Source: a virus (Duplodnaviria > Heunggongvirae > Uroviricota > Caudoviricetes). From it: a stretch of 61,573 nucleotides of DNA. The notes under the pieces are model-generated. The model saw nothing but the letters and a program-made list of their open reading frames with translations. It was not told the origin of the DNA and did not search any database. The stretch covers positions 1 through 61,573 of IMG/VR virus record IMGVR_UViG_2778261122_000001; one strand, written 5' to 3'. The position numbers and the translations under genes were made by a program. Below, piece after piece: positions 22,203 through 44,722 of the stretch (position 1 is the first letter of the stretch; every line of letters starts with the position of its first letter).

Positions 22203-22429
22203 GTCAATTAATTACATAAAATGGGGAGAGAAAATCGACTCCCCACACATTAAACTGATTTAATTACCTGTACTAGCTATAACTCCAACTGACAATTTGA
22301 GTAACCAGAACGAAATCAAGTTTGACAGCCCGCTTTGAGAGAAAAGCAAAAAATACGCTGCTGTACGGCTGATAAAAGAAACTAAGAATGCAAATTACCA
22401 GCCTGAAGACCATCGTTATGCCAGTACCA

Positions 22430-24459: not shown

Positions 24460-24476
24460 CAACTTTCTCCACAAAA

Positions 24477-25472: not shown

Positions 25473-25473
25473 C

Positions 25474-26271: not shown

Positions 26272-26290
26272 ACTTCGTTTCTCCTCTTAA

Positions 26291-26671
26291 TCAGGCGGCT
26301 GCACCCGCCGTTTTCTCGTACTTACTGATAGTTATCTCGACCTTCCCTTCCGGGATAACCGGTCCCCACTCCACCAGCATTCTTTTCACCTGGCTGTCGT
26401 CTTCCCACACACCCGCGTGGGTCAGGGCGTCAAACAGCGCCTTGTTATAGTTGTCCAGATCGCGGATCCGGTTATCCGGAGGAAACAACACGATCTCCAC
26501 TGAAGCAGGTGCCGACGTTGGTTTCGGCAGACGATGTAACTGCTCAACTATTGCTGTGCACGCCGCACTCTGGAATTTTCGCCCCGCCGCGCTTATCAGG
26601 CTCTTACCAGCAAATGCCCCTTTGTTGGGGTAGGTGTTCACGCTGGGTGGAAAAGGCAGAATCAGCGTCAT
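26291..26671 (-). CDS. rusA: RusA-family Holliday junction resolvase
   Basis: 126 aa with the RDLDN catalytic motif and RusA-like size. Confidence 0.75.
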   Translation of the reverse strand: MTLILPFPPSVNTYPNKGAFAGKSLISAAGRKFQSAACTAIVEQLHRLPKPTSAPASVEIVLFPPDNRIRDLDNYNKALFDALTHAGVWEDDSQVKRMLVEWGPVIPEGKVEITISKYEKTAGAAA

Positions 26672-26994
26672 ACTTTCAGCCCCCTCTCATGTAACCAGTG
26701 GGCTGCACGCAGCCTGGCGTTTTCCTCACCAGCAAGCAGTGCGCGGATAATCCCGGCCGCCTCGCTGTCGTCGTCCTTCACCGCGGTATGAAGCGTGATG
26801 CCCCGGGCCACGCCACGCTTTATCGTGATGACGCCTTTTTTCTCCAGTGCGCGAAGATGCTCCACCGCTGCATTCACTGAACGGTATCCCAGCATGGTAG
26901 CCACCTCCTGATTGGTTGGCGGGAAGCCACGTTCTTTCTGGTAAGAAATCAGCATATCCAGCACCTGCTGCTGGCATTGAGTTAACGTCGTCAT
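26668..26994 (-). CDS. LexA N-terminal-type DNA-binding domain protein without peptidase domain
   Basis: Start trimmed to MTTLTQCQQQVLDML; GFPPTNQEVATMLGYRSVNAAVEHLRALEKKGVITI follows the LexA winged-helix pattern; ends at ~108 aa. Confidence 0.65.
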   Translation of the reverse strand: MTTLTQCQQQVLDMLISYQKERGFPPTNQEVATMLGYRSVNAAVEHLRALEKKGVITIKRGVARGITLHTAVKDDDSEAAGIIRALLAGEENARLRAAHWLHERGLKV

Positions 26995-27245
26995 TAAGCC
27001 CCCACGTAATTCCCTGACAGATACCACTCTTCACCCGATGCAGCGCGCTTGCTGCTTTTCCGTAAGCACCGCTCACGATGCGCCAGAAAATTGTTTCGTT
27101 CTGGCTGGGAGTGGCTTTCACGGAATGCCTCCATCCACACCGTTGCAGCACGACGGTATAAACCCCTGGACTCCAGTTCTTCAGCATGGCGGGTCAGGCA
27201 CAAAATCACCCGGGGGTCGTTAGTGCCGACATAGAAATTGCGCAC
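26994..27245 (-). CDS. Hypothetical protein
   Basis: 83-aa ORF, stop/start overlap with neighbours. Confidence 0.35.
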   Translation of the reverse strand: MRNFYVGTNDPRVILCLTRHAEELESRGLYRRAATVWMEAFRESHSQPERNNFLAHRERCLRKSSKRAASGEEWYLSGNYVGA

Positions 27246-27481
27246 AGGTCTGGTTTCACAAACTGGTTCCGCTCCTGCGATATCTCAGCCTGGCGCGGGA
27301 AATGTCTGCGTGTATCCTCTTCACAACGGTGAGCCACACGCCCACTCTGACGTAACTTGCTTGCTGACTGCAGAACTCGCTGCCGTGAGTAACCTGCAAA
27401 AGCATCCGCAATGTCTCCGGAAGTACACCCCGGATGGGCTTCAATGAATTTCTGAACGTCATTCAAAAGGCTCATGATCAC
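27206..27481 (-). CDS. Hypothetical protein
   Basis: 91-aa ORF in operon context. Confidence 0.35.
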   Translation of the reverse strand: MIMSLLNDVQKFIEAHPGCTSGDIADAFAGYSRQRVLQSASKLRQSGRVAHRCEEDTRRHFPRQAEISQERNQFVKPDLCAISMSALTTPG

Positions 27482-28419
27482 CCCCTGAATCCTGCCGGGA
27501 TCTGGCTGTAGTCCACATTGTCGTAACTGGCTTTGAAGTACGGGTCTTCGCGTTTTTCTGTGTACGTGCTGACGGACGGCGATAAGCGCAGGGAAAGTTC
27601 ATCCCATTTTTCCCGCAGCTTCGACGGGCTGAACACGTTACGGCACCAGAACGGGTCGCGGCTGACGCGGCTGTACATCTCGCAGATTTGTTTGTGGGTA
27701 CGACCGTCCTGTACACACATCAGGCGAATTTCATTTGCCCAGGCTGTCCAGTTCGGTTCTTTGGGACGAACCACCTCGCCGTCACATTCGGCGGCCTGCT
27801 CGTACAGGGCGATGATTTTTTTCCAGAGCCACTGTGCGCAGGTCAAATCATCCTGCGTTCCCCACTGGCGCTTTTTAGGGCTGAATACAACCGCATCAGG
27901 ATGGCGAGTTAAAAAATCCTGTTCAGCCTTCTGCATGTCCGGTTGCGAAGCGTCCGGACGAGAAGGTTTTTTATCTGACGGATCATGTTTTGATTTTACT
28001 GACGGATCCCCGCCAGATTCTGACGGGTGAAAACCCGCTTTTTTGCCAGATTTCGACGCATCAAATTTTGACGGGTCAGATTTTGATGCGTCAGATTTTG
28101 ACGGGTCAGAATCTGACAGTTGAGAAAATGCCGCTGCCTGAAGCTTCGCAACGTTAAGCTGATAAACATTCGACGCATTGCGGTTACCCTGGCGACGCGC
28201 CTTACGCGTTAACCAGCCTTCTGCTTCCAGCCGTGCGATAGCCGTTCTGACGGTGCTCATCCCCGCGCCAATCTGGCGGGCAATGGTTTCAATTGATGGC
28301 CAGCACACACCTTCGTCATTACTGAAATCAGCCAGGCGGGCCATAATTGCCACGCTGGATAACTTCATGCCTGACGCAGCGCAACCATCCCATACATAGC
28401 CGGTTAATTTAGTGCTCAT
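27478..28419 (-). CDS. Replication initiator protein (origin iterons inside the gene)
   Basis: 313 aa; N-terminal HTH-like region, linker SDPSKSDASKSDPSKFDASKSG encoded by the DNA iterons; lambda-O-like architecture. Confidence 0.65.
   Translation of the reverse strand: MSTKLTGYVWDGCAASGMKLSSVAIMARLADFSNDEGVCWPSIETIARQIGAGMSTVRTAIARLEAEGWLTRKARRQGNRNASNVYQLNVAKLQAAAFSQLSDSDPSKSDASKSDPSKFDASKSGKKAGFHPSESGGDPSVKSKHDPSDKKPSRPDASQPDMQKAEQDFLTRHPDAVVFSPKKRQWGTQDDLTCAQWLWKKIIALYEQAAECDGEVVRPKEPNWTAWANEIRLMCVQDGRTHKQICEMYSRVSRDPFWCRNVFSPSKLREKWDELSLRLSPSVSTYTEKREDPYFKASYDNVDYSQIPAGFRG
27970..28130. repeat. Origin iterons: about eight direct repeats of a ~15-16-bp unit (ATTTTGACGGGTCAG-like)
   Basis: Visible tandem units gattttgacgggtcag, attttgatgcgtcag, attttgacgggtcag, aatctgacag inside the replication gene. 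Confidence 0.7.
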
Positions 28420-28428
28420 GACCGACCT

Positions 28429-28767
28429 CTATTTCCCTGAATTTACGACGAAACTGTTCGAGCGGGCTGAAGCACTCATGCTCATAGCCTTCGCGGAGGT
28501 AGATAACCCGTTGTGTTTCCGGCTCCCAACGAATGACTCTGACGGGCACTCCGTAGTGATCTTTGAACCAGCGGTTAACTTGTCGCAAAGGACTGTCTCC
28601 TTTTGCCGGTTGAAATCGCCCACAGCCCACTCTGCAAAGCTGTGGGTTACAATTTCCCTGTCACCTGGTACATTCACTGCATAGCAATACTCCACCTTCG
28701 CTTTTCCACCCGGTACAGGAAGTGCAATCAGTTGCGAGCGACGGTAGTGTGTTGTTAAACTGTTCAT
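28429..28767 (-). CDS. Hypothetical early protein
   Basis: 112-aa ORF with ATGA overlap to upstream gene; alternative 73-aa ORF 28409..28630 cannot be excluded. Confidence 0.3.
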
Positions 28768-29315
28768 GCGTTAGTTTCTCCACAGTCACGACACGCCACG
28801 GCGCCCGGAGCTGCACACTCGCGGGCGTCATTACTTTCTGAAATGCAAAAAATTTTGTAGACCAGTGCTGCATGCTCCTGCAGCTTCGAAATTGAGAGGT
28901 ACAGCTCGTCATTAATTGCTGTCTTCTCATGCGGTTCCACTACACCGTCTTCGATTGCTGAACGAATCTGTTTTGAATAACTGCCGATCTGTTCAATGAC
29001 TTCCAGCAGACGCTGGTTAATATCGGCGTTGTCCACATCCTCGACGTCAGGAAGAGACACAAAGACGCCATTTGCAGACTGCGCCACAGCATCAGCAATG
29101 AAGTGAGTTCCACCAGCACGTTGCAAAATCATTGCCCATCCCAGCGGGAAAATCTGATCGCCATCGGCACGAAGGCGGTTAAATAATGCGTTCTCTGTTA
29201 CATCCAGCCAGTCAGCAGCTTCAGCGTAACCCCCCGGCAACGCTGCGATAGTTTTTCTGACAGCTTTCACGTACCACTCAGGCTGTTTGTCTACTTTCCA
29301 GTGATGCTTACCCAC
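28764..29315 (-). CDS. Hypothetical early regulatory protein at the cII position
   Basis: 183-aa ORF directly downstream of cro; positional inference only. Confidence 0.4.
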
Positions 29316-29568
29316 GGTTCACCTCCTGTTCCTGTGGTTTAAACCCATTCTGGTTTTGGCTAGATTGAAAACGTGCCGGATAAAGAATCTGCATTTCGCT
29401 GATTTCACCCTTAAAAAAATTGGCTAAACGTTCTGCAAGCTCGATAGATGGAATCTGTTCCAGCCTCTCAATACGACTCAACGTCGCTGGATTGACTTGA
29501 ACACCCGCAGCAACATGCTGCAAAGTGAAACCATGCGCCTTACGCACATTTCGTAATGGTGATTGCAT
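29308..29568 (-). CDS. cro: Cro-like HTH repressor
   Basis: 86 aa, HTH pattern, divergent from cI. Confidence 0.65.
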   Translation of the reverse strand: MQSPLRNVRKAHGFTLQHVAAGVQVNPATLSRIERLEQIPSIELAERLANFFKGEISEMQILYPARFQSSQNQNGFKPQEQEVNRG

Positions 29569-29665
29569 ATAACCTCCAAATATTGCGCGTTATGCATGTT
29601 ATTTCACGCAAGTATTTTGCGCAAGTTGATTTGCTTATCACGCAATAAAGAAATGTAATAAACGC
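29569..29665. promoter_or_regulatory. Divergent immunity promoter/operator region (PR/PRM-like)
   Basis: 97-bp gap between divergent cro and cI with repeated TTGCGC / CACGCAA half-site motifs. Confidence 0.6.
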
Positions 29666-30358
29666 ATGAACATAGGAAACCGAGTCAGACAACTTCGCCA
29701 AGCGAAGAACATGAAAATCGCCGATCTCGCTGAAGCAATAGGAGTAGATGCGGCGAACATCTCGCGCTTAGAAACGGGTAAGCAGAAACAATTTACCGAA
29801 CAAACACTGAGTAATATTGCCAAGAGCTTAGGTGTTGATATTGCTGATCTCTTTACCTCTGCCCTCAAAAGCAATACTGTATATAAAAACAGTAATGATG
29901 AGGATGTTGCGCAGGTGAAGGATGTGTTCCGTATTGAAATGCTGGATATCAGTGCCAGTGCGGGAAATGGCCTTATCCAGGGCGGTGATGTCATTGATGT
30001 GATTCATGCCATCGAATACAGAACTGATAATGCTGTATCAATGTTCGGCGGACGACCAGCCAATCACATCAAAGTTATCAACGTTCGTGGGGACAGTATG
30101 TGTCCAACCATTGAGCCAGGAGATCTCATCTTCGTTGATGTCAGCATCAATCAGTTTGATGGTGATGGTATATATGTCTTTGGTTTTGATGACAAAATAT
30201 ACGTTAAAAGACTTCAAATGATTCCTGACAAACTGCTGGTGATTTCTGATAACCAGATTTACCGTGAATGGGGAATTACTAGCGAAAACGAACACCGATT
30301 CATGGTCTTTGGAAAGGTCTTAATCAGTCAGTCGCAAACCCTTAAGAGACATAATTAA
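29666..30358 (+). CDS. cI: CI-type prophage repressor (HTH plus S24 LexA-like autopeptidase)
   Basis: N-terminal HTH; C-terminal GDSM Ser and VKRL Lys of the S24 dyad. Confidence 0.85.
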   Translation: MNIGNRVRQLRQAKNMKIADLAEAIGVDAANISRLETGKQKQFTEQTLSNIAKSLGVDIADLFTSALKSNTVYKNSNDEDVAQVKDVFRIEMLDISASAGNGLIQGGDVIDVIHAIEYRTDNAVSMFGGRPANHIKVINVRGDSMCPTIEPGDLIFVDVSINQFDGDGIYVFGFDDKIYVKRLQMIPDKLLVISDNQIYREWGITSENEHRFMVFGKVLISQSQTLKRHN

Positions 30359-30377
30359 CTTCAATATCCCATCCATC

Positions 30378-30399
30378 GGCCACCGAAAGGTGGCTTTTT
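30378..30399 (+). terminator. Intrinsic terminator downstream of cI
   Basis: GGCCACC-gaaa-GGTGGC hairpin followed by TTTTT. Confidence 0.6.
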
Positions 30400-30685
30400 A
30401 TCACCCATCATTTTGCACATCTCGCAAAATATTACTTGCGCATTTCGCATTTTAATTTTATCTTTTGTTCCAGACCAACTACAGGATTACAACAAAATCT
30501 GGTTGCAACACGGTGCATGGTGCATGTGTCGTAAGCGGTCAGTAAATGTCAAAAACGAACAGTCAGGACGACCAAGAAGTAGCCGCCTTGGGCATATGAA
30601 GTCCAAGATGATTCGTTAGCAACAAAAAAGCGCCCTATAGGACGCTTCGCTCTTTAACAATCTGGATATCCACAACAGTAGCAAT

Positions 30686-31167
30686 CTACAGATTGCCGTT
30701 AAGTTTTCTGGCCAACTCCTCAATGGATGGAGGCGATACGTAATCCGGATTTTTATTCATCAGAAACTTATTTTCACAGTGGAGGCACCTGCTTTTATGA
30801 AAAAGCTCATCTTCGCTAACCGGGAATGGTTGAAGTATCGATACTATCTTTTGTCCAAAACATTTTGGGCAAAGATGCATGGTTATGCTGCCACCGTTCA
30901 CGATTACCTCCTTCGAGTATACAAAAGTACCCGACTCAAGTTGGTTAAGGATATAGCCTTCCGTCTGAGCCTCAAAGTTTTCGAATTCTGCAATTTTAGC
31001 TTTGAGAGAAGCATTTATTTCTTGATAAGAGCCCACCAGTTCAACGAGAGACACGCATTCGCGCTGAATAGACGCAAGCTTTGAGTTCAGCTCACCAATA
31101 GCCGCATTTACTTCAGCTTGAGTTTTTGCCTCGTTCATTAGTTTTGCAATCTGGGCTGTTTCACGAA
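30686..31167 (-). CDS. Hypothetical coiled-coil protein with C-terminal CPKC...CLHC zinc-ribbon-like motif
   Basis: Start trimmed to MTAIRETAQ; upstream in-frame extension crosses hairpin-rich GC-rich DNA and is probably non-coding. Confidence 0.45.
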
Positions 31168-31214
31168 TAGCCGTCATTGCTGCCGTTAATTCAGCGATCA
31201 CATTGAATACTCTT

Positions 31215-31268
31215 ATTGTTGTTGGGGATATCCAGATTAACCGAATCCTTGTTGTTGGGGAATAACCA
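31215..31268. repeat. Two direct repeats of TTGTTGTTGGGGA(T/A)ATA(T/A)CCAG, 33 bp apart
   Basis: 31215..31234 and 31248..31268 share 18 of 20 positions; lie 50-100 bp upstream of the 30686..31167 gene. Confidence 0.5.
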
Positions 31269-31486
31269 GGTCCACCTCGCCTGATGTGGCTAAAAGCAGG
31301 CACATAACAGCTAAGTATTTTCAACCAGAGAGAATCCTTAGCGTTGTGGTGAATGCGGCTCAGCGCACGCGGGTTAAGGTTGAGGCTGACAGTCGACCTT
31401 CTGTGGATACCCACCCGCCTGGTGTGCAACCTTCGCCAGGCACCGGGAGGCACCCGGCACCACAACTTTATGCTGTGTGTAGTCCT

Positions 31487-31621
31487 GGCGGTACCAGTTT
31501 GTACCCTTGCTTCCGGCTGGTACCGTCCTTTTTACAAAACAGAGAAGAGCCTCACCGGACGACGGGCTCATAACCCAATCCATCCGGGCGGCTGCCACCG
31601 CAGGTGTTCTTCTCTGTTTTG
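31487..31621 (+). other. Hairpin-dense GC-rich noncoding element (candidate structured RNA)
   Basis: GGCGGTACCAG/CTGGTACCG stem followed by TTTTT (31487..31533), then a perfect 14-bp inverted repeat CAAAACAGAGAAGA/TCTTCTCTGTTTTG around a 59-nt loop (31535..31621); strand unknown. Confidence 0.35.
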
Positions 31622-31746
31622 TGGAGAAACTAACCGCCCCTACGGGGGCATTTATGGAAATGTAATTGACTCAATAATCGCCGGACGGTGAGGGCTTCCT
31701 TTTACCCGAATTCAGCGCGGTGCAGCGCATATACGTGGAGAACAAA

Positions 31747-32283
31747 ATGTCATTTATTAAAACTTTTTCCGGGAAGCATTTTTATTATGACAGGATAAAT
31801 AAAGACGACATCGTTATTAACGATATCGCGGTTTCCCTTTCAAATATCTGTCGCTTTGCAGGACATCTTTCACACTTCTACAGTGTCGCCCAACATGCGG
31901 TGCTTTGCAGCCAGCTGGTGCCGCAGGAATTTGCTTTTGAAGCTTTAATGCATGATGCAACAGAAGCATATTGCCAGGACATCCCCGCACCACTGAAACG
32001 ACTTCTTCCTGACTATAAACGGATGGAAGAAAAAATAGACGCCGTAATCCGTGAGAAATACGGGTTACCTCCTGTTATGAGCACGCCAGTGAAATATGCC
32101 GATCTCATTATGCTGGCAACCGAACGCCGCGATCTCGGGCTTGATGATGGCTCTTTCTGGCCTGTGCTGGAAGGTATCCCGGCAACAGAGATGTTCAACG
32201 TGATTCCACTGGCTCCAGGCCATGCCTACGGGATGTTTATGGAACGCTTTAACGAATTATCGGAGTTACGCAAATGCGCATGA
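31747..32283 (+). CDS. HD-domain phosphohydrolase
   Basis: Start trimmed to MSFIKTF after GGAGAA; H...HD metal-binding pattern (FAGHLSHFYSVAQHAV...LMHDATEAY). Confidence 0.75.
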   Translation: MSFIKTFSGKHFYYDRINKDDIVINDIAVSLSNICRFAGHLSHFYSVAQHAVLCSQLVPQEFAFEALMHDATEAYCQDIPAPLKRLLPDYKRMEEKIDAVIREKYGLPPVMSTPVKYADLIMLATERRDLGLDDGSFWPVLEGIPATEMFNVIPLAPGHAYGMFMERFNELSELRKCA

Positions 32284-32636
32284 ATGTTTTCGAAATGGAA
32301 GGGTTTCTTCGTGGGAGATGTGTACCGCGAGATCTGAAAGTGAATGAAACGGATGCTGAATACCTGGTGCGTAAATTCGATGCGCTTGAAGCTAAATGTG
32401 CAGCACAGGAAAACAAAGTAATACCAGTGTCAACTGAACTGCCACCAGCAAATGAAAGTGTTTTGTTATTCGATGCTAACGGAGAAGGCTGGCTAATTGG
32501 CTGGCGTTCTCTCTGGTACACCTGGGGACAAAAAGAAACCGGAGAATGGCAGTGGACATTTCAGGTCGGGGACCTTGAAAACGTCAATATCACTCACTGG
32601 GCAGTAATGCCAAAAGCACCGGAGGCTGGAGCATAA
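32274..32636 (+). CDS. Hypothetical early protein
   Basis: 120-aa ORF overlapping upstream stop. Confidence 0.45.
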   Translation: MRMNVFEMEGFLRGRCVPRDLKVNETDAEYLVRKFDALEAKCAAQENKVIPVSTELPPANESVLLFDANGEGWLIGWRSLWYTWGQKETGEWQWTFQVGDLENVNITHWAVMPKAPEAGA

Positions 32637-32941
32637 TGACCACTTTTACCGACAAAGAACTGATTAAAGAAATTAAAGAGCGTATCAGCAGCCTTGACGT
32701 GCGAGACGATATTGAGCGCCGTGCTTATGAAATCGCACTCCTATCTCTGGAAGTAGAACCAGATGAACGCGAAGCTTATGAATTATTCATGGAAAAGCGT
32801 TTTGGTGACTTAGTAGATCGTCGGAGAGCAAAAAACGGCGATAACGAATACATGGCATGGGATATGACTCTCGGTTGGATCGTCTGGCAGCAACGAGCTG
32901 GTATCCATTTCTCAACAATGTCACAGCAAGAGGTGAAATAA
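32636..32941 (+). CDS. Hypothetical early protein
   Basis: 101-aa ORF, ATGA overlap with neighbours. Confidence 0.45.
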   Translation: MTTFTDKELIKEIKERISSLDVRDDIERRAYEIALLSLEVEPDEREAYELFMEKRFGDLVDRRRAKNGDNEYMAWDMTLGWIVWQQRAGIHFSTMSQQEVK

Positions 32942-33291
32942 TGGAGCCATACAGCCTCACACTCGATGAGGCCTGTCATTTTCTCAAGATATCCAGACCG
33001 ACTGCCATTAACTGGATACGCACAGGGCGTCTTCAGGCAACACGCAAAGATCCCACTAAGAATAAATCTCCTTACCTCACAACACGACAAGCCTGCATTG
33101 CGGCTCTTCAGTCTCCGCTGCATACTGTCCAGGTGAGCGCGGGTGATGGCATAACAGAGGAAAGAAAATGTCACTCTTCCGCAGAGGTGAAATATGGTAC
33201 GCCAGTTTCACATTGCCGAACGGTAAAAGATTTAAACAGTCTCTTGGAACAAAGGACAAAAGGCAGGCGACAGAACTCCATGACAAGCTAA
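32941..33291 (+). CDS. xis: Excisionase-like DNA-binding protein
   Basis: [36 protein letters not shown] pattern directly upstream of int; 3' extent uncertain. Confidence 0.45.
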
Positions 33292-34331
33292 AGGCTGAAG
33301 CATGGCGGGTCAGCAAACTTGGTGAAATACCTGATATAACGTTCGAGGAAGCGTGTGTCAGGTGGCTTGAAGAGAAAGCACATAAAAAATCACTGGACGA
33401 TGACAAAAGCCGGATCGGATTCTGGCTTCAACATTTCGCAGGAATGCAACTAAGAGACATTACTGAATCAAAAATTTATTCAGCAATGCAGAAAATGACG
33501 AACCGGCGTCATGAGGAAAACTGGAAACTCAGGGCAGAAGCATGCAGAAAAAAAGGGAAACCTGTTCCAGAATACACGCCAAAACCAGCGTCCGTTGCAA
33601 CGAAGGCTACGCATCTTTCATTTATAAAGGCCCTACTAAGAGCCGCAGAGCGTGAATGGAAAATGCTGGATAAGGCACCAATTATTAAAGTGCCTCAACC
33701 AAAGAATAAACGGATCCGCTGGCTGGAGCCCCATGAAGCACAAAGGCTGATTGATGAATGTCCGGAGCCATTAAAGTCTGTTGTTGAATTTGCACTGGCA
33801 ACAGGCTTAAGACGCTCGAACATCATCAACCTTGAATGGCAACAAATAGATATGCAGCGCCGGGTGGCATGGATAAACCCGGAAGAGAGTAAATCAAACC
33901 GCGCAATTGGCGTTGCGCTGAATGATACTGCATGTCGCGTATTGAAAAAACAAATCGGGAATCATCACCGTTGGGTATTTGTGTACAAGGAAAGCTGTAC
34001 CAAACCAGACGGAACGAAAGCGCCAACAGTAAGGAAGATGCGGTATGACGCAAACACAGCCTGGAAAGCGGCGCTGAGACGGGCTGGTATTGATGATTTC
34101 AGATTTCACGACTTGAGACACACCTGGGCAAGTTGGCTGGTTCAAGCCGGAGTCCCGTTGTCAGTGTTACAGGAAATGGGAGGCTGGGAGTCTATCGAAA
34201 TGGTTCGTCGATATGCTCACCTTGCACCTAATCACCTTACCGAACACGCACAGCAAATAGACTCGATCCTGAACCCATCGGTCCCAAATTTGTCCCAGTC
34301 AAAAAATAAGGAAGGTACTAATGATGTGTAA
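33168..34331 (+). CDS. int: Tyrosine integrase, P22 Int type (thrW-targeting)
   Basis: [33 protein letters not shown] matches remembered P22 Int; C-terminal R...HxxR...Y catalytic pattern. Confidence 0.9.
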
Positions 34332-34345
34332 CTTATTGATTTAAA

Positions 34346-34392
34346 TGGTGCCGATAATAGGAGTCGAACCTACGACCTTCGCATTACGAATC
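34346..34392 (-). other. Partial tRNA-Thr(CGU) 3' end, 47 nt: attachment-site core between the two prophages
   Basis: Reverse complement GATTCGTAATGCGAAGGTCGTAGGTTCGACTCCTATTATCGGCACCA equals the 3' portion of E. coli thrW from the anticodon loop to CCA; 5' half absent. Confidence 0.8.
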
Positions 34393-34727
34393 TGTAGCAC
34401 CAATCATAACTATCTGTTTTAGCAAGCATTAACCGCATTCACTAACCTATAGTTGATGGCACAAACAGAAAGTTGATGCATGATGTTGCCATGTGTATGT
34501 CACAAATACGGCACAACGATCTTCAAACATGTAGCCACACATCCACAGAAGAGCACAAAGCCTTGCAATCCAGTGCAAAGCTTTGTGTGTTTAAATTTTG
34601 TCTAAGCATTCTAGTGAAAACATAGTAAAATCAGTAACGGCTGGAAATCATTCAATACTCGCACTATCGAAAGTTAACCAGCCAGCCGCAGTATCCTATC
34701 ATGACAAGTTACTGCGGCTTTTTATAT

Positions 34728-35024
34728 TTAACGGATCAACAGCCAGACCAGCAGACACACCACCACTGGCACAGCAAAATCCAACAAACTTCCCACATCC
34801 CACACGCGTGGATCAAAACCGCCCCACCACGGCATATTCATACGCTTGCCATGCCCGAACATTTCTATCCAGCGATATTCTGCCTGGGTGTGTTCTCGGG
34901 ATATAAAAAACACACACCCTATTACAGCCCCAGTTATCGGATCATTAAATAAACTCAAAAACAGAAACTGTAGCGATAATGATATTAGCACATGAATGAA
35001 ATGAGATATGTCCATACTTACCAA
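34728..35024 (-). CDS. Hypothetical small membrane protein downstream of tailspike
   Basis: 98-aa ORF with about three hydrophobic segments. Confidence 0.35.
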
Positions 35025-36676
35025 CTCAAAAGAATATTTACATCACCTACGCTAATAGGATTTGGAGTGACATTTTGAAATGTTACCCTGACGATATTAT
35101 CGGAAACAGCAATAGCATCTGAAATTATACCTATTGGGAGATCATTCAACACTGTCATTTGTAGAGGAACTTCATTAGATATGATATATCCGGTCAATGT
35201 TCTTTGCATTGAGAACCTGCCACTTGCTGAAATCGTGCCAACATTCAACGTTGATTTTACTTTCTTTCCTGAATATGTAACACCATTCAAATCTATATGT
35301 GAGTTATTTATTAATGTCAACGCAGAATATCCTGAAAAATCACTATTAGCCCCGGCCTGCCTTACTACAGAGAATTTATCAGCTCGTATTGCAAAGTCAC
35401 CAGTTGCTTCCGATGCATTAATGTTATTGGTAACAACAACACCTCCATCAACACAGTTAATAGCATATGTTGCATTTCCTTTTATCGTTATGTTTCTTAA
35501 ACTTAAATAAGATGCAAACTGGCATGTGGCAAAAGCAATTGCTCCATCTGATAGATACCCATCTGAAAATTCAACAGACGAAGAATACCTTGATCCTATA
35601 CACGATTGAGTTCTCGGTTTAAAAATAGATCCGCCTTTAATATAACAATCCGCCGCATGCTCAACCTTAAGAGAGTCTTCCCCTGAATTGTAAGAAGTGA
35701 ATTCTGTGCCCCTCACGCTTGCACTGTACACACATTCAAGGGAAATATTAGCATTTGATATATGAACCCCATTAACCCCAAACTGAGATCCAGAGCCAGA
35801 AACAAGAACTCCACAAACAGAGCCTCCATTTACAATCAAATTGTTTGCATCCCAAACTACGCAACTACCACATTGTGAATCAGGGTAGTATCCACCTCCG
35901 ATAATGAGTCCGTAATCACCATCTGTTTCAACAGCAACATTTTTTATGCTGTATATATTTGATCTAAATTGTATTCCTTTTGTTGTTTTTATTATGGAAT
36001 TTATTGGTTTTGCCACAACCCCGTTAACTGGGCCTGAAATTATACCATTGTGACTCATATCCAATGTTAAAACATTTCCATCCTTGGAAATTATCATCGC
36101 TCCACATGAAATGTCTCTCCTGCCAGAAAGTATACAATATTTACCAACATGAAAATTATCTGCATTCTGAACAGAAACTTTAAATATACCAGTCAACACA
36201 TCATAAGAAACATCATATACATTAACAGGACTATAATCCACACCCAATATATTCAGAGGAATATTATCAAACTCATCATAATGTGAATAACCATCAGGAA
36301 TGTGAATATACTGCCCGTATTCTATCTGTGATCTAAGCTGATCGGGATCGTACTTCAGCACATTAGGAAAATAGAACTGCTGTGATCCATATGCATCGTA
36401 CACAGCCATAGAATGCCCTTGTACAGTAACGAACTTAGCAATCTGTCCGTTATATACTGGATACCCTGCGGCATTGATGACGATTGGCTGTGCAACAGGA
36501 ACGTGAGAACCATCTTCGTTTTCTACATAAACCTGAATCTGGTTTTCTGGATTTACCGGGTCAGTATCAATTTTACCGATATAAATTTTGCCATTGGCTA
36601 CGGCTTTAAAAGAACGCGCCATAGTGAAGAGTTGCGATGGCATCGATACGATCACATTGGCTGTAATGTCTGTCAT
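35018..36676 (-). CDS. Tailspike protein with P22 gp9-type N-terminal head-binding domain
   Basis: First ~110 aa ([43 protein letters not shown]) match remembered P22 gp9; remainder divergent. Confidence 0.85.
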
Positions 36677-36813
36677 TTAATTTGCTCCAGATACAAGGAA
36701 TCGCCGCAGCGTGGCTACGGTTGGTATTTGTTTGGTTTTTGAACTACGAAAATTTCGTAGTGCTATCCATCAAGGCCATCGCCGCTGAGTTGCTGCGGTG
36801 AATTTTGGGCATA

Positions 36814-36836
36814 AAAAAACCCAGCCGAAGCTGGGT
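36814..36836 (-). terminator. Intrinsic terminator after ant
   Basis: On minus strand CCCAGC-ttcg-GCTGGG followed by TTTTTTT. Confidence 0.55.
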
Positions 36837-36876
36837 CGTTGCGTTGGTTATTGACCTACACTTTTCGTGCAGGTAG

Positions 36877-37755
36877 TTAAAGTTTAATTGAGTGGCACGC
36901 TCTATCACGTATCGCTGCGAATGAAGCTATCTCTTTAAGTGCCCAGCTTTGCTCAGCCATTAAATGGCGAAGTGCTTTTAGTTCAGCTCTTACTGCTGAA
37001 ACGTCATACCCCGCTTTTGTCAGAATATTGATTAGTTTATACGCCGGGCTGCATTCAACGAGTGCGCTTCGGTCAAGAGCAACAGTATCACCGCATTGCT
37101 GCCTGATAATGGCGTAAGGTGCATTTTCAGCAAACCATGAAATCGGGAAGTTAATATCCAGTTTTGGCGCTGGTAACTCTTCTTGTTTGCCGATGAACTC
37201 GCCTTCAAGCACTACCCTGTGGATGTACTCTACGGCCAGCGGGATTTGTTCAATTGAAAGTTCATCAATGCTGTCAATACCAAAACGCTGATGAACCATA
37301 TTGTATGCATCGTCATAGCGAAGTCCTTTCTTTCCTACCAGCATGTTTACTGCATCGCGTAGCGGTGTTCTTTCCTCAACAGTGGTTTTCTTTCCTTTTA
37401 CATACTCGTCATGTTTGCGAATTGAAGGCAGAACTTCTGCTGTTACCCACTTGCGGAATTTGTGCGGGACTGAACCTTTATTGACTGCATCGCGGCAGCG
37501 CAGAACCAATGTATACATACCTGATTCGCTCACAATGCTTATATTCTGCTCACCACCAAGGGTGTAACTTAAAGTTACTCCCTTTTCATCGTCATCAAGT
37601 GCAGTAAGCGCCTTGCGTGAGTTAGTCAAAGCTAAAGCATCACAAACATCTTTAGCTACAAACCACGGCTCGCCGCACTTGTTAATGACGCGAATTTCAC
37701 TGTCGCCAAATTTGAAGATGGTGAAATCGTTTTGTGCCTTTGCTATACTTTTCAT
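36877..37755 (-). CDS. ant: Antirepressor Ant
   Basis: 292 aa, antirepressor-like N-terminal domain; arc-ant-tailspike order as in P22. Confidence 0.8.
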
Positions 37756-37817
37756 GTCAATATTTCCTAATCCGATTTGTTGATACCGAAGCCCTGACTG
37801 TTACCGCAGTTGGGGCT

Positions 37818-38042
37818 TCAACTTTTCACTTCTTTAAAGTGCCTACCTTCTACAGTTGCTCTGAGATAAAAATTCTTATCTTTACCGTTTAGTGCTTCCC
37901 AAGCATCAACAATGCACTTATTACAGATGTGGACTTCTCGATAACCAATAGCTTTCCTGTCAATATTAGTGAACATAACAGTTTCTTTATCTGTCAATGT
38001 GGATGCATGACAGAAGTCGCAATCTATATAAGATACCTTCAT
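37818..38042 (-). CDS. Hypothetical Cys-rich protein inserted between arc and ant
   Basis: 74 aa with CDFC...CNKC spacing. Confidence 0.35.
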   Translation of the reverse strand: MKVSYIDCDFCHASTLTDKETVMFTNIDRKAIGYREVHICNKCIVDAWEALNGKDKNFYLRATVEGRHFKEVKS

Positions 38043-38197
38043 ACCGTTATCCCCTCTCTCTTCAGGCTGTCCATCACTCGCTTGTAAATCTCAGAGTTAA
38101 CAGATCGCCCGTTCTCTTCCGCCACCTTACGCACCAAATCCAATACTTCTTTAGGCCACCGCAAATTGAACTGCGGCATTTTGCTCATTCCTTTCAT
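38039..38197 (-). CDS. arc: Arc repressor
   Basis: Start trimmed to MKGMSKMPQFNLRWPKEVLDLVRKVAEENGRSVNSEIYKRVM; matches P22 Arc, 52 aa. Confidence 0.9.
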   Translation of the reverse strand: MKGMSKMPQFNLRWPKEVLDLVRKVAEENGRSVNSEIYKRVMDSLKREGITV

Positions 38198-38287
38198 ATT
38201 CACCTCACAATATAGGTCCACCGTGGACCTATTGAGAATATAGTAGAGTGCTTCTATCATGTCAATACACTAACTTGGGGTGATGGC

Positions 38288-38536
38288 ATGGCTAGAGACG
38301 ATCCGCACTTTAACTTCCGTATGCCTTTGGAAGTAAGAGAAAAATTGAAATTAAGAGCAGAGGCTAACGGAAGGTCAATGAACTCTGAGTTATTACAAAT
38401 CGTTCAGGATGCTCTCTCAAAGCCATCACCGATTGCAGGCTATCGAGACGAAGCTGAACGCTTGGCTGATCAGCAAGCAGAAATTGTTAAGAAGATGGTG
38501 TTTGAAACCCTGAAAAAAATGTACGAGACCAGATAG
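38288..38536 (+). CDS. mnt: Mnt repressor
   Basis: MARDDPHFNFRMPLEVREKLKLRAEANGRSMNSELLQIVQDALSKPSP matches P22 Mnt; divergent from arc. Confidence 0.9.
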   Translation: MARDDPHFNFRMPLEVREKLKLRAEANGRSMNSELLQIVQDALSKPSPIAGYRDEAERLADQQAEIVKKMVFETLKKMYETR

Positions 38537-38578
38537 GTCAATGTTTGTTCGTTGATATAAAATAACAAGGTATACATT

Positions 38579-39178
38579 GTGATTGAGATAGGCGTTATGG
38601 CCATCCTGAATCAAGAGCCAGGAAAAATTGAAAACGTTTTTTCTGACATATCAACATCTATCGAGCGTTCAATTTCAGACTTTGATCGCAGTCATAGCGG
38701 CTCTTTGTCTAAAAAACAGGCTTCTGAAGCTCTTAGCAAGATCTACTGCGTTATGTCACCTGTAGAGGAAGTTTGCAAAAAGTACATTACATTCATTGAC
38801 ATATTAAGTAATGGTACGGAAGAAGATATTTCCTCACTTGATATTCAACATGACGATGTAGATATGTTGAACGATCAGATATCTAAGCTTGATTATGGTA
38901 TCGCGAAACTGTTGTATACCTTCTTCATCGCTGAGAACAGCGATGCGTGGAAGCCCCATATGTCAACTCTTACAACAATGAAAAACCACTCAATAAATAC
39001 TTTTATAGAATACAAAAGGCTAACTATGGGGCTTGTGACGCTAGCAATGCAGCACATACCACTATCATATGCTGAACCTGAAGAGTTCACTGAAGAAGAG
39101 TTGGCTTCATTCAAGAAATCAGTTGAAGATTCACATAAAAGATTTGGCATGGAAGCACCAAAATGGAAAACCGCATAA
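38579..39178 (+). CDS. Hypothetical protein X1 (first gene of cluster downstream of mnt)
   Basis: 199-aa ORF, GTG start, AT-rich, no TM segment, no recognised motif. Confidence 0.55.
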   Translation: MIEIGVMAILNQEPGKIENVFSDISTSIERSISDFDRSHSGSLSKKQASEALSKIYCVMSPVEEVCKKYITFIDILSNGTEEDISSLDIQHDDVDMLNDQISKLDYGIAKLLYTFFIAENSDAWKPHMSTLTTMKNHSINTFIEYKRLTMGLVTLAMQHIPLSYAEPEEFTEEELASFKKSVEDSHKRFGMEAPKWKTA

Positions 39179-39582
39179 GCATTGTTGTAGATGCAGCGGC
39201 TGGACCATTAGAACAATACTTTGCGAAGGCTCTTGCAAACTACAAAAACAGAGGCACCGTTTCAGCTTATCTTGGTAAAATTGGTGGGTTTGAGAGAAAC
39301 CATCACGCCGTCTTATCGGGAATTTACAAGTCGCACATCAGGATCCCTGGAGTAGATGATCCTTGGTTAAAAACAACGCCAATACATCGTAGAGTTAGCG
39401 ATAACTTTTTGATATTTGCGGTACACAACACATATCCAATTCATATCCAGATCATTGCTATCATTAAACCTGATGGTCATGAGAAGGTAAAAAAACTATT
39501 GCCAGCCATCATTGATATAACTGAAAAAAGATTCCAATCTCTAAATGAGAGGGAGCTTAACTCGTTGATTTCATACAAATAA
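39163..39582 (+). CDS. Hypothetical protein X2
   Basis: 139-aa ORF overlapping X1 by 16 nt; no recognised family. Confidence 0.55.
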   Translation: MENRISIVVDAAAGPLEQYFAKALANYKNRGTVSAYLGKIGGFERNHHAVLSGIYKSHIRIPGVDDPWLKTTPIHRRVSDNFLIFAVHNTYPIHIQIIAIIKPDGHEKVKKLLPAIIDITEKRFQSLNERELNSLISYK

Positions 39583-39604
39583 AATATCAACTAAGGAGGT
39601 TGGC

Positions 39605-40027
39605 GTGTTTGGCATATTAACGAGAAGCAAGATAAAAAAATTAAGGGCGGAACTTGTCGAAACACAAAAATTAGCTTCACATTTTTACAAAATGAAACAC
39701 GACGCTGAAGAGCGTGCATTCGTTGAGTTATGCGACCTATCTATTCGTATGGGGGTAGAGCCAGATGTAGCGGCAAAAACTCAAGAAGGCGTTAATATAC
39801 TTGCAGATGTTGTTTTAAACAGACAATATGCGTTTTATCTAAACGAAAAAGCCATTCAAATTTACTCGCAAATTTTCCTCTTGGAAAAAAGGAGAGGAAC
39901 TCGCGATAGAGAAGAGTGGCTAAATGAAGTTGTTAAAAAATCTGGCTGGGAAGTTGTTTCATCAGAGCTACCTTTTATTTGTGCTGATTTAATCGAAGAG
40001 GCAAAAGAGCGCCTATCCGATGGTTAG
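39605..40027 (+). CDS. Hypothetical protein X3
   Basis: 140-aa ORF after GGAGG; no recognised family. Confidence 0.55.
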   Translation: MFGILTRSKIKKLRAELVETQKLASHFYKMKHDAEERAFVELCDLSIRMGVEPDVAAKTQEGVNILADVVLNRQYAFYLNEKAIQIYSQIFLLEKRRGTRDREEWLNEVVKKSGWEVVSSELPFICADLIEEAKERLSDG

Positions 40028-40059
40028 CCAAAGCCATCCTTGGCTTTATGGAGATTAAC

Positions 40060-40125
40060 ATGGTAACAGTTGGTTGGATTATCGCGTTCCTTATTGCATT
40101 TTGGGTTGGTCGTCACTGGCTGTAG
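40060..40125 (+). CDS. Candidate 21-aa hydrophobic peptide (MVTVGWIIAFLIAFWVGRHWL)
   Basis: ATG six nt after GGAG, following hairpin 40030..40047; overlaps 3' end of gene 16 on the opposite strand; below ORF-track cutoff. Confidence 0.3.
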   Translation: MVTVGWIIAFLIAFWVGRHWL

Positions 40126-42247
40126 TATCTTGCTGAGATAACCATGTGATAAACCCCGTGCGAGCAATGGTTTTTGCTTCATCTGTTGACAGGGTTTTCT
40201 CCCATCTCTTAAATGCATTAGATCGCATCAGCTTCCTTTCTATTACGCGTCTCACTTCTGCTCTGTCTACTGGTGCGTTTTGCAGACGAAATAGCATTGA
40301 TTTAAACTCAGGAGAGGACAGTAGAGCATCAGCAGCCTTTATCCTGCTTGTTTTCCCTGACATCAATGCAGCCGATATTACCCCTGAAGCACCTGCTCCC
40401 AAAAGGCCAAATGAGCTTGTAATTCCTTCCGCCGCAATAGCTTTTGATGCTATTCCATAAATTTTTGCGAGACTACCCTTTTCTTTCAGAAAGTTATTAA
40501 CTTGCTGATCCACAAGGCTACTAGCATACTGCTTACCAGTATTGAGTCTATTCATAGCCTTAGCTGCTTGATAAATCGTATCAAGGCGCTTTGATGCATC
40601 TGTGCCAATAGCATCACGGAGAGCCTTCATATTGGCCCCATTGCGTGACATTCCGTTATACCATTTTACAAATCCATCAACTCCTAATTGCTGACCAGGT
40701 GATTTGGCATAGCTGGTAAATGCTTTATTCATTGAGGTGAGCGCAACTTCCTGCCGCATATCCTTTGGAATCGACTTCATTAATTGCCTAAAGTCGCCAC
40801 CGTTTCCTTTTGCCATATTAACAACAGCACTTTCAACTTTTGGAATTGCTGATTGCTGAAGTTTTCTACCCAAGACGGTTACAGCATCATCTTCAATGGA
40901 TTTTCGTTTTTTTACCAACTCCTTACCAAGCGTCCATAATTCCCCTGCGCCATATTTTTCTGCGACAGCCTGTTGGTCATCTGTTATGGCTGCATATAAC
41001 TTTTTAAGAACACCTGTTTCTTCATCCTTGAATGGACCAGAGCCTTTGCCAATAGCTTGTCCAACCTGCTTTCTAGCGAGATCTAAACGCCCATACGTTG
41101 GCAAGGTGTTTGGATCAAGTCGGTTCAATGTCCGCTTCATTATTGGAGATAATTCATCAATTCCACCTATGTCATCAGCAAAATCCTCTAAAAAATTCAA
41201 TGTATTAGTTGCCTCAATCCGGTCTCTTACAGGTACCTTTTCGGCAATTTTGTTGTAGATGTTATCTGACTGATTTTGTAATGATGAAATGGTTTTATCA
41301 AAATTATCTGCAAGCCTGTCAGAAACCAGTTGCTTATCAAGGTTTCCCCCAAATGAAGTTATCATTTCATCAGCTTTTCTTCCTAATTCAGTAATAAAAC
41401 GCTTATGCGCCTCACTAATCTCTGTTCCAGGGAGACTTGCCACTGCATTATCAAGAGCCCTGACAGCAGGATTATTAGAGATCATGCCTGGAGTGGCATA
41501 ATTTTCCAGTTCTAGCTCACGAATAGCATTTATCGCGTTAAAATCAGGATTAACTTCATCGGCGAAATCTTGAATAGCTCGTTGCCCACCAATAAATTTA
41601 TTATCCATTGCACCAGCAGCTTTCTTTAACGTTGCTTTAGATGATTTACTGCCCATCCCTACGGATGAGCGATAAATATCTCCGGCACTATTTTTAATTT
41701 TTCCTGCAATCTTCCCAAGCGCTGGACCAACAATCTCGGCTACAGGGCCAGCCACAGCGCCAATAGCAGCGCCGGAAGCAACATCGCTATTTGTTCCATT
41801 GGCTACAATAGCCCCTTCTCCAGCACCAAGCCCTGCGGCGGCAGCCAGCCTTGCCGCCCCTTTGGGAACCTGAGAAATAATCCCACCACCACTAACAAAT
41901 GGCGCTGCTTGTCCAACAAACTCACCAACATCTTGTGCGGTTGATGGTTTTGCCGCTAACTTCTGCTGTAGAGACTGAATTGCGGCTTGCTCTTCTGGTG
42001 TCATATCCTGAAACAGGCCAACACCTTTACCAACATCCATCAATCCACTGAGAACGCCATACATAAAACGGTCGAAACCGTTAGCATTATTAACAACATT
42101 TTCCTGTCTGGAATTTTCCTCTGGCGAAACCAAAGGTGATTGCTGCTGTTCTGGTTGGGAATCAAGCACAAAGCCATCAGGAAGTTGTGAGTTATCAGGC
42201 TGTTCATCCAGAACAAACCCCTCTGGTAAACCTACATTGGTTGCCAT
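40091..42247 (-). CDS. Ejection (DNA transfer) protein, P22 gp16 type
   Basis: 718 aa, Gly/Ala-rich; position before gp20/gp7/gp14 as in P22. Confidence 0.75.
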   Translation of the reverse strand: MATNVGLPEGFVLDEQPDNSQLPDGFVLDSQPEQQQSPLVSPEENSRQENVVNNANGFDRFMYGVLSGLMDVGKGVGLFQDMTPEEQAAIQSLQQKLAAKPSTAQDVGEFVGQAAPFVSGGGIISQVPKGAARLAAAAGLGAGEGAIVANGTNSDVASGAAIGAVAGPVAEIVGPALGKIAGKIKNSAGDIYRSSVGMGSKSSKATLKKAAGAMDNKFIGGQRAIQDFADEVNPDFNAINAIRELELENYATPGMISNNPAVRALDNAVASLPGTEISEAHKRFITELGRKADEMITSFGGNLDKQLVSDRLADNFDKTISSLQNQSDNIYNKIAEKVPVRDRIEATNTLNFLEDFADDIGGIDELSPIMKRTLNRLDPNTLPTYGRLDLARKQVGQAIGKGSGPFKDEETGVLKKLYAAITDDQQAVAEKYGAGELWTLGKELVKKRKSIEDDAVTVLGRKLQQSAIPKVESAVVNMAKGNGGDFRQLMKSIPKDMRQEVALTSMNKAFTSYAKSPGQQLGVDGFVKWYNGMSRNGANMKALRDAIGTDASKRLDTIYQAAKAMNRLNTGKQYASSLVDQQVNNFLKEKGSLAKIYGIASKAIAAEGITSSFGLLGAGASGVISAALMSGKTSRIKAADALLSSPEFKSMLFRLQNAPVDRAEVRRVIERKLMRSNAFKRWEKTLSTDEAKTIARTGFITWLSQQDTTASDDQPKMQ

Positions 42248-43581
42248 TGTCCGTTCCTGTAAATAATTTTCTGACCAGTTTTAGGATTTTTCGCGGTCAT
42301 ACCTTCTCGAAATGTTTGACCGCCAGATGTTGCTTGTTGTGTCTGTTGTTGCGCAGGCTGCTGAATATCTTCATACAGCTTGGCTTTTCTGGATTGCAAT
42401 TGCTTAGTTAGTCCGCTGGGGAGAGAATCTCCATAAGTTGAAAGATAATCATCCATTTGCTGATTAAACTTTTCGCCTTCAGTATTTGCCATCAGTTTTG
42501 AGGTGTTGATTAAGTCTTGGACTTGCTCATTATTCAGCATCTTGCCGTTAGATAATTGGCTAACATAGTTACCAAGTGTGCCGAATATTCCATCAGTGCG
42601 TTTTACCTGCACTTGCTCACCTTCGCGTACCACAGATTGCGGATCCAGCGATTTCATATAGTTGAAAATCATTCCCAACTGCGCGGCTGGAGTGTTGCGC
42701 TTCCCAAGGGCTTGTAGGTTGTCAGAAGCACTGCGCATTGCAGAATAATTCTTTGAGAACCCATTAATATCACTATTCAGATCTCGAACAAGTTTTGGGT
42801 CAATCTTTCCGCTTTCCTGTTGTTTCATCCCTAATTCCTGCAACTTCAGGGCGACGTTATCATTATGCATTTGTGCCCGCTGAGCCCTGTCTAGTTGAGC
42901 GTTCTGGATATTTGCCCATCCTCTCGCATTCTCCATATCAGCCTGACGGATGCTTTCATCCAATCGCCCTTTCTCAAGTTGGCGACCAACCATCTTGTCC
43001 TGTAAATCCCAATACTTTTCATGGCCTAATGCAAACTGACCATATTGTCCGATAAGTTGTGATGTTGCTTGTGGGTCTTTTTGATACATGCTGAGGAGTT
43101 GTTGTGGGTCTACCCCCTGATTAGACAATCTGGTTGCATTGTTTCCAATCCACTTGCTAAATGCATCACCACCCATCATGGAGGCAATTTGACCGCCTGC
43201 CGCTAGATTGCCAATTTCATCACGCTGGTCTTCGTCAGCCCACTTCATACCAGACTGAATCTTCTCTAATTGACCAGGATATTTGGTCATCAGATCTCGA
43301 ACCTGCTGTCGATCACCGGACTGGATGGCTGCCGCATATTCTTTTTGGAATGCAGCATCCGCTTCCTGTTGCTTTGCGGCTTGATATGTTTGAGCGACAC
43401 TACCAAGTCCCTGCAACGCCTGAAGGCCGATGTTATTGCGACCTGAACGCTCCATTTCGTTGTTCTGGCGAATATAGGCCAACGCCTCACTTACATCACT
43501 TGCCTTTGGCGCATTTGAGTTTTGCCCACCGATACCAGCAAGAAAACCGCCTGAGTTGATTCCTTGTTGCCAAGTAGCCAT
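42232..43581 (-). CDS. Ejection protein, P22 gp20 type
   Basis: 449 aa; position and size. Confidence 0.75.
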   Translation of the reverse strand: MATWQQGINSGGFLAGIGGQNSNAPKASDVSEALAYIRQNNEMERSGRNNIGLQALQGLGSVAQTYQAAKQQEADAAFQKEYAAAIQSGDRQQVRDLMTKYPGQLEKIQSGMKWADEDQRDEIGNLAAGGQIASMMGGDAFSKWIGNNATRLSNQGVDPQQLLSMYQKDPQATSQLIGQYGQFALGHEKYWDLQDKMVGRQLEKGRLDESIRQADMENARGWANIQNAQLDRAQRAQMHNDNVALKLQELGMKQQESGKIDPKLVRDLNSDINGFSKNYSAMRSASDNLQALGKRNTPAAQLGMIFNYMKSLDPQSVVREGEQVQVKRTDGIFGTLGNYVSQLSNGKMLNNEQVQDLINTSKLMANTEGEKFNQQMDDYLSTYGDSLPSGLTKQLQSRKAKLYEDIQQPAQQQTQQATSGGQTFREGMTAKNPKTGQKIIYRNGQWQPM

Positions 43582-43590
43582 ATTCCCACC

Positions 43591-44265: not shown

Positions 44266-44722
44266 TCTTTAGCTCCTCGTATTTTGAGCGCGGTAACTGA
44301 TAAATCGTGATGCCTACAGGCTTTCCATTGCTGGTATAAGCATCATCAAGGTGACCAACACGGGTAGCGCCAAGCAAACGGATAATTGCCCGTCCGTATT
44401 TCGTTGTGTCAGGAACCATGGTGATGCTGTTAAGGAATGGTGAGTTTTCGAGAAGCCATTTGCAGAATAATCGATGCCCTTGCAGTGCATATTCACCACG
44501 GAATCCGGGGTCGTACACCGCATGGCATTCAACAACGCTATGCCAGAAGTTACGCACTTCATGAACGCCAGCCAGCACTAATCCTTCGTAGATGCCGAGG
44601 TATACCGCATCAGGCTTGATGTAGTATTTATCTCCACTGTCTACGATATTTCCCGTGTTTGCCGGGTTGTTAAGGAATTCTGCAAGCTTCACCGGGTTAT
44701 CGATGAGCTTTATTTCCATCAC
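44240..44722 (-). CDS. Head-completion/ejection-associated protein, P22 gp14 type
   Basis: 160 aa; position and size. Confidence 0.7.

Follow-up and report, generated by a model that had tools for sequence, protein, structure and literature searches.

In the lambda tandem dilysogen, the elements are arranged in the order gal, BOP', prophage, POP', prophage, POB', bio. The internal core, with phage arms on both sides, is flanked by the two prophages, and this internal site is a true homotypic attP that can be used by lambda Int. Tandem lysogeny is also known for phages that integrate at the tRNA-Thr gene thrW. A lysogen carrying SfI and SfX in tandem at thrW of Shigella flexneri was produced experimentally (Sun et al., 2011; PMC3306764). 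SfX was the first phage and SfI the second, and the second phage entered the att site adjoining thrW (PMC3306764). The 46 bases that we describe below were printed as the att core of SfI, common to SfII, SfV, SfX, and P22 (PMC3636060). For P22, strand exchange was placed at ATGCGAAGGTCGTAGGTTCGACT (Lindsey et al., 1992, in the part quoted in PMC8022706).

The locus described here is located in a stretch of 61,573 nt (hereafter, the window), which is the whole of draft contig NNWE01000030.1 (GCA_002486805.1); the outer junctions of the prophage array would lie beyond it. As in the SfI and SfX lysogen, two different phages with an internal att site share the 46-nt thrW core at the same proA-adjacent locus, and a phage with an Sf/P22-type Int (SfI in that lysogen) is paired with a phage of HK75 type (SfX, according to our reading of the SfX sequence). 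The classes are placed the other way round, however. The internal junction of the SfI and SfX lysogen would be SfX int, core, SfI gtr arm, whereas in the window the Sf-type int belongs to the distal prophage and the HK75-type arm to the proximal prophage. The partners also differ: here, a lambda-like siphovirus is combined with a P22-like podovirus whose tailspike is rare, and gtr genes are absent at the junction. The window resembles the lambda dilysogen in its internal core with phage arms on both sides between two prophages, but its arms are heterotypic. The tRNA-Thr fragment in the window is very probably the crossover core between two different prophages, designated A and B, which were stacked at thrW of an Escherichia coli-type chromosome by Int-mediated site-specific recombination. 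The features of the locus are as follows.

1..34345, no strand assigned: prophage A, a lambda-like siphovirus (virion-gene identity and Pfam families)
32857..33291, plus strand: excisionase gene (xis) of prophage A, overlapping the start of int (HTH_17 domain)
33168..34331, plus strand: tyrosine integrase gene (int) of prophage A, Sf/P22 type (PF00589)
34281..34286 and 34292..34297, plus strand: two GTCCCA repeats, presumed Sf/P22-type Int arm sites (offsets -65 and -54)
34346..34391, minus strand in the tRNA sense: att core, the 3' end of tRNA-Thr (thrW) (identity to thrW and to attP cores); it comprises part of the anticodon loop, the 3' side of the anticodon stem, the variable loop, the T arm, the acceptor 3' strand, and CCA
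34362..34384, minus strand: match to the P22 attP site ATGCGAAGGTCGTAGGTTCGACT (read directly)
34392..61573, no strand assigned: prophage B, a P22-like podovirus (P22-type gene families)
34392..34547, plus strand: arm of prophage B specific to HK75/SfX-type att sites (identity to free-phage arms)
34458, 34499, and 34510, plus strand: right-arm repeats GGCACA, GTCACA, and GGCACA, respectively (offsets +67, +108, and +119)
34553..34588, plus strand: conserved hairpin, stem of 14 bp, located beyond the att site as seen from int (folding and conservation)
34684..34729, plus strand: intrinsic-terminator-like hairpin (stem at 34684..34719, T-run at 34720..34729)
34728..35024, minus strand: small ORF of 95-98 aa downstream of the tailspike gene (gene call in the source record)
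35018..36676, minus strand: tailspike gene of prophage B, 552 aa (P22 head-binding domain PF09008)
36877..38536, no strand assigned: immI-like region of prophage B (Pfam families of the genes called in the source record)
36877..37755, minus strand: Ant-like Bro-N protein
38039..38197, minus strand: Arc
38288..38536, plus strand: Mnt/Arc-family protein

The plus strand reads TGGTGCCGATAATAGGAGTCGAACCTACGACCTTCGCATTACGAAT at positions 34346..34391. For comparison, this region was aligned to the int/thrW/proA region of Escherichia coli strain 165 and to the attP regions of SfI, SfIV, P22, and HK75. Its reverse complement is identical to the 3' end of thrW as found in E. coli strain 165, CCA included, and all 46 positions are invariant across the window, strain 165 thrW, and the four attP regions. 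The next position, 34392, is C in the window, G in thrW, and T in the Sf phages and P22. An earlier note on this sequence had described the 3' 47 nt of a thrW-like tRNA; the fragment is indeed an exact thrW 3' end, but the identity covers 46 nt rather than 47 because the C at 34392 differs from the G of thrW. An exact match of 46 nt in 2 x 61.6 kb is expected by chance with a probability of the order of 1e-23. The core is single-copy; a further copy that would indicate the outer end of prophage A was looked for within the window and not detected, even at the level of 15-mers. A complete tRNA at this site, which had been named in advance as an observation against double integration, is absent. 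ARAGORN detected no tRNA over the window, and the Rfam tRNA model RF00005 scored 15.7 bits at the core, below its gathering score of 29, with unpaired or mismatched positions in the acceptor stem. Other Rfam families gave only chance-level matches in 33500..35500. By correspondence with P22, strand exchange in the window element would occur within 34362..34384.

To the left of the core, the virion genes of prophage A were 96-97% identical to those of the inducible lambda-like phages PhiR47_2, PhiR11_1, and mEp332. Their Pfam families included terminase gpA, lambda-type portal, capsid E, tape measure (853 aa), and tail L and I. Prophage A has its own regulatory and lysis set, consisting of Q, lysozyme, Rz, a CI-type repressor, xis, and int. 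Its left end is truncated by the contig start, near the junction with the upstream tail-tip gene J. The integrase gene reads toward the core and stops 14 nt short of it. The encoded Int was 99.7% identical to Int of SfIV, 89.7% to that of P22, and 55% to that of HK75, and in SfIV and SfV the homologue of the overlapping xis ORF carries the annotation excisionase.

Prophage A also contained a low-GC island (21200..24000; 35-41% GC vs. about 50-57% in the surroundings). The island is flanked by the Q antiterminator gene (24094..24474) and by a gene for a type II-like DNA methyltransferase (20079..21131), which is located upstream of the lysis genes. Two ORFs of the island, of 420 aa (22430..23692, minus strand) and 148 aa (21756..22202, plus strand), had no Pfam or PADLOC matches. 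The position of the island, downstream of Q, is the classic one for a moron.

To the right of the core, prophage B contained P22-type families: the P22 portal, Terminase_3, P22_gp7, Inj_translocase, the tail needle, NinB/E/X/F/H, RusA, and Q. The gene order, starting from the core, was tailspike, Ant-like protein, Arc, Mnt, an ORF at the gp16 position, gp20, gp7, gp14, needle, and gp10. Beyond gp10 followed the coat and scaffold genes, the P22-type portal and terminase, a second lysis cassette, a second Q, and the nin genes. The right end is truncated by the contig end within the replication/nin region. Relatives of the tailspike are annotated as head-binding or tailspike protein. The earlier note had placed the int of one prophage and the tailspike of another on either side of the core, converging on it from left and right, and these assignments agree with the PF00589 ORF at 33168..34331 (plus strand), ending 14 nt from the core, and with the 552-aa ORF at 35018..36676 (minus strand), which carries PF09008. 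The 718-aa ORF at 40091..42247 was also considered as a tailspike candidate but rejected, since the head-binding domain is absent from it; it is located between the gp20-like gene and the immI region, which is the position of ejection protein gp16. No gtr O-antigen genes of the P22 style were present between the core and the tailspike gene, where the sole ORF is the one of 95-98 aa at 34728..35024. This small ORF had no Pfam family and is homologous to a hypothetical protein of strain MS14385. The immI-like region was 87-89% similar to ant, arc, and mnt of P22.

Two further observations were made on prophage B. The exact 552-aa tailspike was found in only four contigs on record, and the three long ones have the same neighbourhood. 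A gene for a YafO-family toxin (39163..39582, PF13957) was located between mnt and the ejection-protein genes (38579..40027). It is flanked by ORFs of 199 aa and 140 aa, and the annotation of E. coli MS14385 includes the same three genes.

Distinct and self-sufficient phage genomes, each with Q and lysis genes, thus lie on either side of the internal core. A single chimeric phage genome, the other observation that the earlier note had regarded as decisive against its reading, is contradicted by the two distinct virion, lysis, and regulatory gene sets. In a self-comparison of the window, two short matches between lysis genes were the only internal repeats; a concatemeric or over-length phage contig was rejected on these grounds. 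One shared stretch, in the Rz-type lysis genes (18645..18879 vs. 55636..55870), was 235 bp long with 95% identity, and it is a possible substrate for recombination between prophages A and B.

The homology to free phages changes at the core. Matches to the free phages SfI, SfII, SfIV, and SfV run through int and end at 34391, the last base of the core, and the sequence at 34392..34692 is unrelated to the gtr-side arm of SfI, SfIV, and P22. Homology to free HK75, mEpX2, HK446, and SfX is limited to the core and the right arm (34320/34328..34692). This right arm was 94-97% identical to the attP arm of free HK75, mEpX2, HK446, HK542, mEp213, and SfX. In free phages of the HK75 type, the arm is located between the same core and a tail-fibre gene, and the site is described in several of their records as an attP resembling thrW and ptwF. 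In the prophage B relative located beside dacD, the arm at 34392..34547 is missing and homology begins at 34548. The break points are positioned at the edges of the core and therefore match the prediction for site-specific insertion.

The repeats in the arms followed the same division. The attP regions of P22, SfI, and SfIV had GTCCCA at -65 and -54, and GTCCCA or GTCTCA at +55, +109, and +120. Those of HK75 and SfX had GGCACA at -65 and -54, and GGCACA, GTCACA, and GGCACA at +66/67, +107/108, and +118/119, respectively. The P22 att site reportedly has two arm sites on one side and three on the other, which is the same layout. In the window, the Sf/P22 pair lies to the left of the core and the HK75 triplet to the right of it, i.e., one class per side. 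Its GTCCCA pair lies within the 3' end of int, with the same motif and offsets as in P22, SfI, and SfIV. Both hexamer classes occurred at about 0.26-0.36 per kb across the window; therefore, the repeat clusters are beyond chance. Judging from their position and class, the GTCCCA and GGCACA/GTCACA repeats are probably Int arm sites.

Compared with the attP of P22, SfI, and SfIV, the window has an identical core, the same two GTCCCA repeats at -65 and -54, and an int-side arm of prophage A that is 99% identical to the Sf phages and 82% to P22; however, the far arm of these phages has GTCCCA/GTCTCA followed by gtrA, and the far arm of the window is unrelated to it. Compared with the attP of HK75, mEpX2, HK446, and HK542 (thrW/ptwF, CP4-6 type), it has an identical core, the same repeat offsets, and both hairpins, but the int-side arm of these phages has GGCACA, and their Int is 55% identical to that of the window. 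The Sf/P22-type and HK75-type Int lineages are 55% identical to each other. The description of the core as attP-like is correct as far as its appearance is concerned. It is not a true attP but a heterotypic hybrid with arms from two Int specificities, GTCCCA twice on the left and GGCACA/GTCACA three times on the right, and it should not work as an attP for either Int.

The known SfX sequence (U82084.1, 2660..3029) was also assigned to one of these classes: it has an Int C-terminus of HK75 type and GGCACA/GTCACA arm repeats, not those of the Sf/P22 type. The serotype-converting Shigella phages with the thrW core are therefore split into two Int/arm classes.

A probe of 346 nt spanning the hybrid site was used to search for the junction elsewhere. 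Matching phage records fell into two classes, with either the int arm and the core (probe positions 1-192) or the core and the far arm (121/129-346); none of 50,697 phage records contained both arms together. This bears on the possibility that a single unintegrated or episomal phage, or a single chimeric phage, has this site as its genuine attP, given that the local order of int, core, arm, and tailspike is that of free P22-like and HK75-like genomes. Such a phage would have to exceed 61.5 kb and carry two different sets of head, tail, lysis, and Q genes, its arms would belong to two different classes in a combination seen in no phage record, and terminal redundancy was absent in the self-comparison of the window. 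We regard this explanation as scarcely conceivable.

Of 5,426 closed E. coli genomes, 48 (about 0.9%) contained the whole hybrid junction. E. coli 1506 contains a degraded prophage with an Sf-type int, the core, the HK75-type arm, and then a P22-like prophage extending from tailspike to xis; the array ends with a 384-aa int, intact tRNA-Thr, proA, proB, and phoE. In VTB97584v, the left prophage is HK97-like and the right one has myovirus-type tail genes and ends with a 384-aa int followed by thrW and then proA. The right-hand Ints of 1506 and VTB97584v were 98.7% identical to HK75 Int, with GGCACA at -65 and -54. Together, these two closed genomes show all the elements of the layout predicted in the earlier note. 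By analogy with them, prophage B is expected to have an HK75-type Int of its own, not a second copy of the prophage A int, and this int is probably located beside intact thrW in the strain of the window.

In strain 13C1065T, which has a single prophage at the site, the outer junction consists of a chromosomal LysR-family pseudogene, the core, and the HK75-type arm. A fossil of the 3' end of an HK75-type int (L009, 5880..5955) was observed there, to the left of the outer core and beside the LysR-family pseudogene, with GGCACA repeats at -64 and -53. It appears to be the remnant of an earlier prophage that occupied this hotspot and decayed.

The junction in the window rests on short-read assembly across a sequence that is repeated at least three times in such an array. 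An assembly artefact would mean that the two prophages are located at separate places, or in another order, and were joined via the shared core. The window is a draft contig with ends in phage repeats, both att classes share 34320/34328..34391 (about 64-72 bp), and a Logan contig that encodes the same tailspike ends 182 nt beyond the gene. All of this is compatible with misjoining. However, the shared repeat is below the usual read lengths, the identical junction is present in the 48 closed genomes, and in two of them it lies within fully resolved tandem arrays. Moreover, the sister contig NLXQ01000024.1, from a second, independent assembly, repeats the join with 99.98% identity over 10.3 kb, so that the same join has been assembled in at least two independent draft genomes. 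We consider an artefact very unlikely. The sister contig continues for 5.8 kb through genes for DnaB, O, CII, Cro, CI, a P63C protein, and N, and ends at N. A 133-kb contig, NLXU01000014.1, carries a prophage with a nin region 99.5% identical to that of prophage B and should contain the int end of its prophage.

An array of this kind could be real and yet have acquired its junction by general homologous recombination across the homology of the int end and core, for example, after transduction. The 64-72 bp of shared sequence at the site would permit this, and mosaic exchange is widespread among lambdoid prophages. The homologous and Int routes give the same sequence, and sequence alone cannot separate them. 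Nevertheless, the homology breaks off at the edges of the att core, as Int exchange predicts, and there is laboratory precedent for Int-mediated tandem insertion at thrW. We consider homologous recombination a highly improbable origin of the junction. Core identity, the two phage genomes, the arm classes, the break points, and the arrays in closed genomes all support double integration at one tRNA site, as originally proposed.

For the tandem thrW lysogen, the predicted order is thrW-distal flank, core, [A ... xis, int], core (34346..34391), [tailspike ... B ... xis, int], thrW, proA. In the genomes examined, the thrW-distal chromosomal flank is yagP or yaiC. The junction would serve both as the int-side att site of prophage A and as the tailspike-side att site of prophage B, with two Int lineages presumably using the same core with different arm repeats. 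The first phage would integrate at thrW by Int exchange within the core, leaving a full core at both ends of the prophage, and the second phage would then use one of the two resulting cores. Either prophage B would enter the rebuilt thrW beside the int of prophage A, or prophage A would enter the distal core beside the tailspike arm of prophage B. Both entry routes lead to the same sequence, and therefore the order of arrival is not readable from the window. Prophage A would probably be excised by pairing of the junction with the distal site via its own arm repeats, and prophage B by pairing of the junction with the thrW-adjacent site; for each Int, the foreign arm would serve as the bacterial flank. 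For joint excision of A and B, a single reaction would have to combine Sf-type and HK75-type arms, and its efficiency is predicted to be poor. Either prophage could be inactivated by lesions beyond the window.

Two hairpins are located to the right of the core. The distal one, at 34684..34729, corresponds to the hairpin and T-run that the earlier note had recorded at approximately 34686..34730. Its stem arms are GCCGCAGTA/TACTGCGGC, followed on the plus strand by TTTTATATTT at 34720..34729. The stem is 10 bp long, with a folding energy of -16.6 kcal/mol and z = -3.3. A simple terminator scan missed this hairpin because the loop is 16 nt long. With its G+C-rich stem and T-run, it is a putative rho-independent terminator. 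The T-run is present only on the plus strand, and therefore the hairpin is predicted to stop transcripts from the int side more readily than transcripts of the tailspike gene. The homology with the HK75-type arm runs into this hairpin and breaks off at about 34688..34692.

The hairpin at 34553..34588 (-18 to -21 kcal/mol, z from -3.5 to -4.4) is conserved far more widely than that at 34684..34729. Its conservation in Stx phages is about 91%, and it also occurs in HK106, phi80, and the dacD-adjacent relative of prophage B. The region of this hairpin is 84% identical over 70 nt to lambda positions 27473..27536, just distal to tI/sib. An assignment of the hairpin as the lambda sib/tI retroregulator was considered and rejected, as the tI hairpin is at about 27538..27585 and the conserved hairpin about 30 nt distal. 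The sequence at 34548..34688, adjoining the att arm, is conserved among lambdoid phages whose integrases are unrelated, such as Stx phages, HK106, phi80, and lambda.

In lambda, int is regulated by sites distal to the gene (PMC2951348; PMC5300877). The junction with the hairpins of prophage B mimics the arrangement downstream of int in free phages. We can speculate that the rejoining of the prophage A int to the int-distal region of prophage B could alter the levels of Int. A further idea, which we find rather doubtful, is that the prophages excise independently, joint excision is blocked by the hybrid arms, and the hairpins of prophage B keep Int of prophage A low, resulting in ordered induction. 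If the hairpins terminate or destabilise int transcripts, Int of prophage A would stay low until prophage B leaves, and induction would be ordered.

The arrangement as such is real, recurrent, and ordinary, and it is already understood, tandem lysogeny being known for related phages; current understanding of site-specific recombination is left unchanged. The junction is of use mainly for annotation: it accounts for a tRNA fragment without a tRNA gene, marks the boundary of two prophages that prophage finders could take for one element of 60+ kb, and predicts what lies past both contig ends. The detail added to known tandem lysogeny is the heterotypic, hybrid nature of the junction. Two Int lineages that are 55% identical share one thrW core and presumably use different arm repeats, and the stacked prophages are therefore joined by hybrid sites and not by true attP sites.
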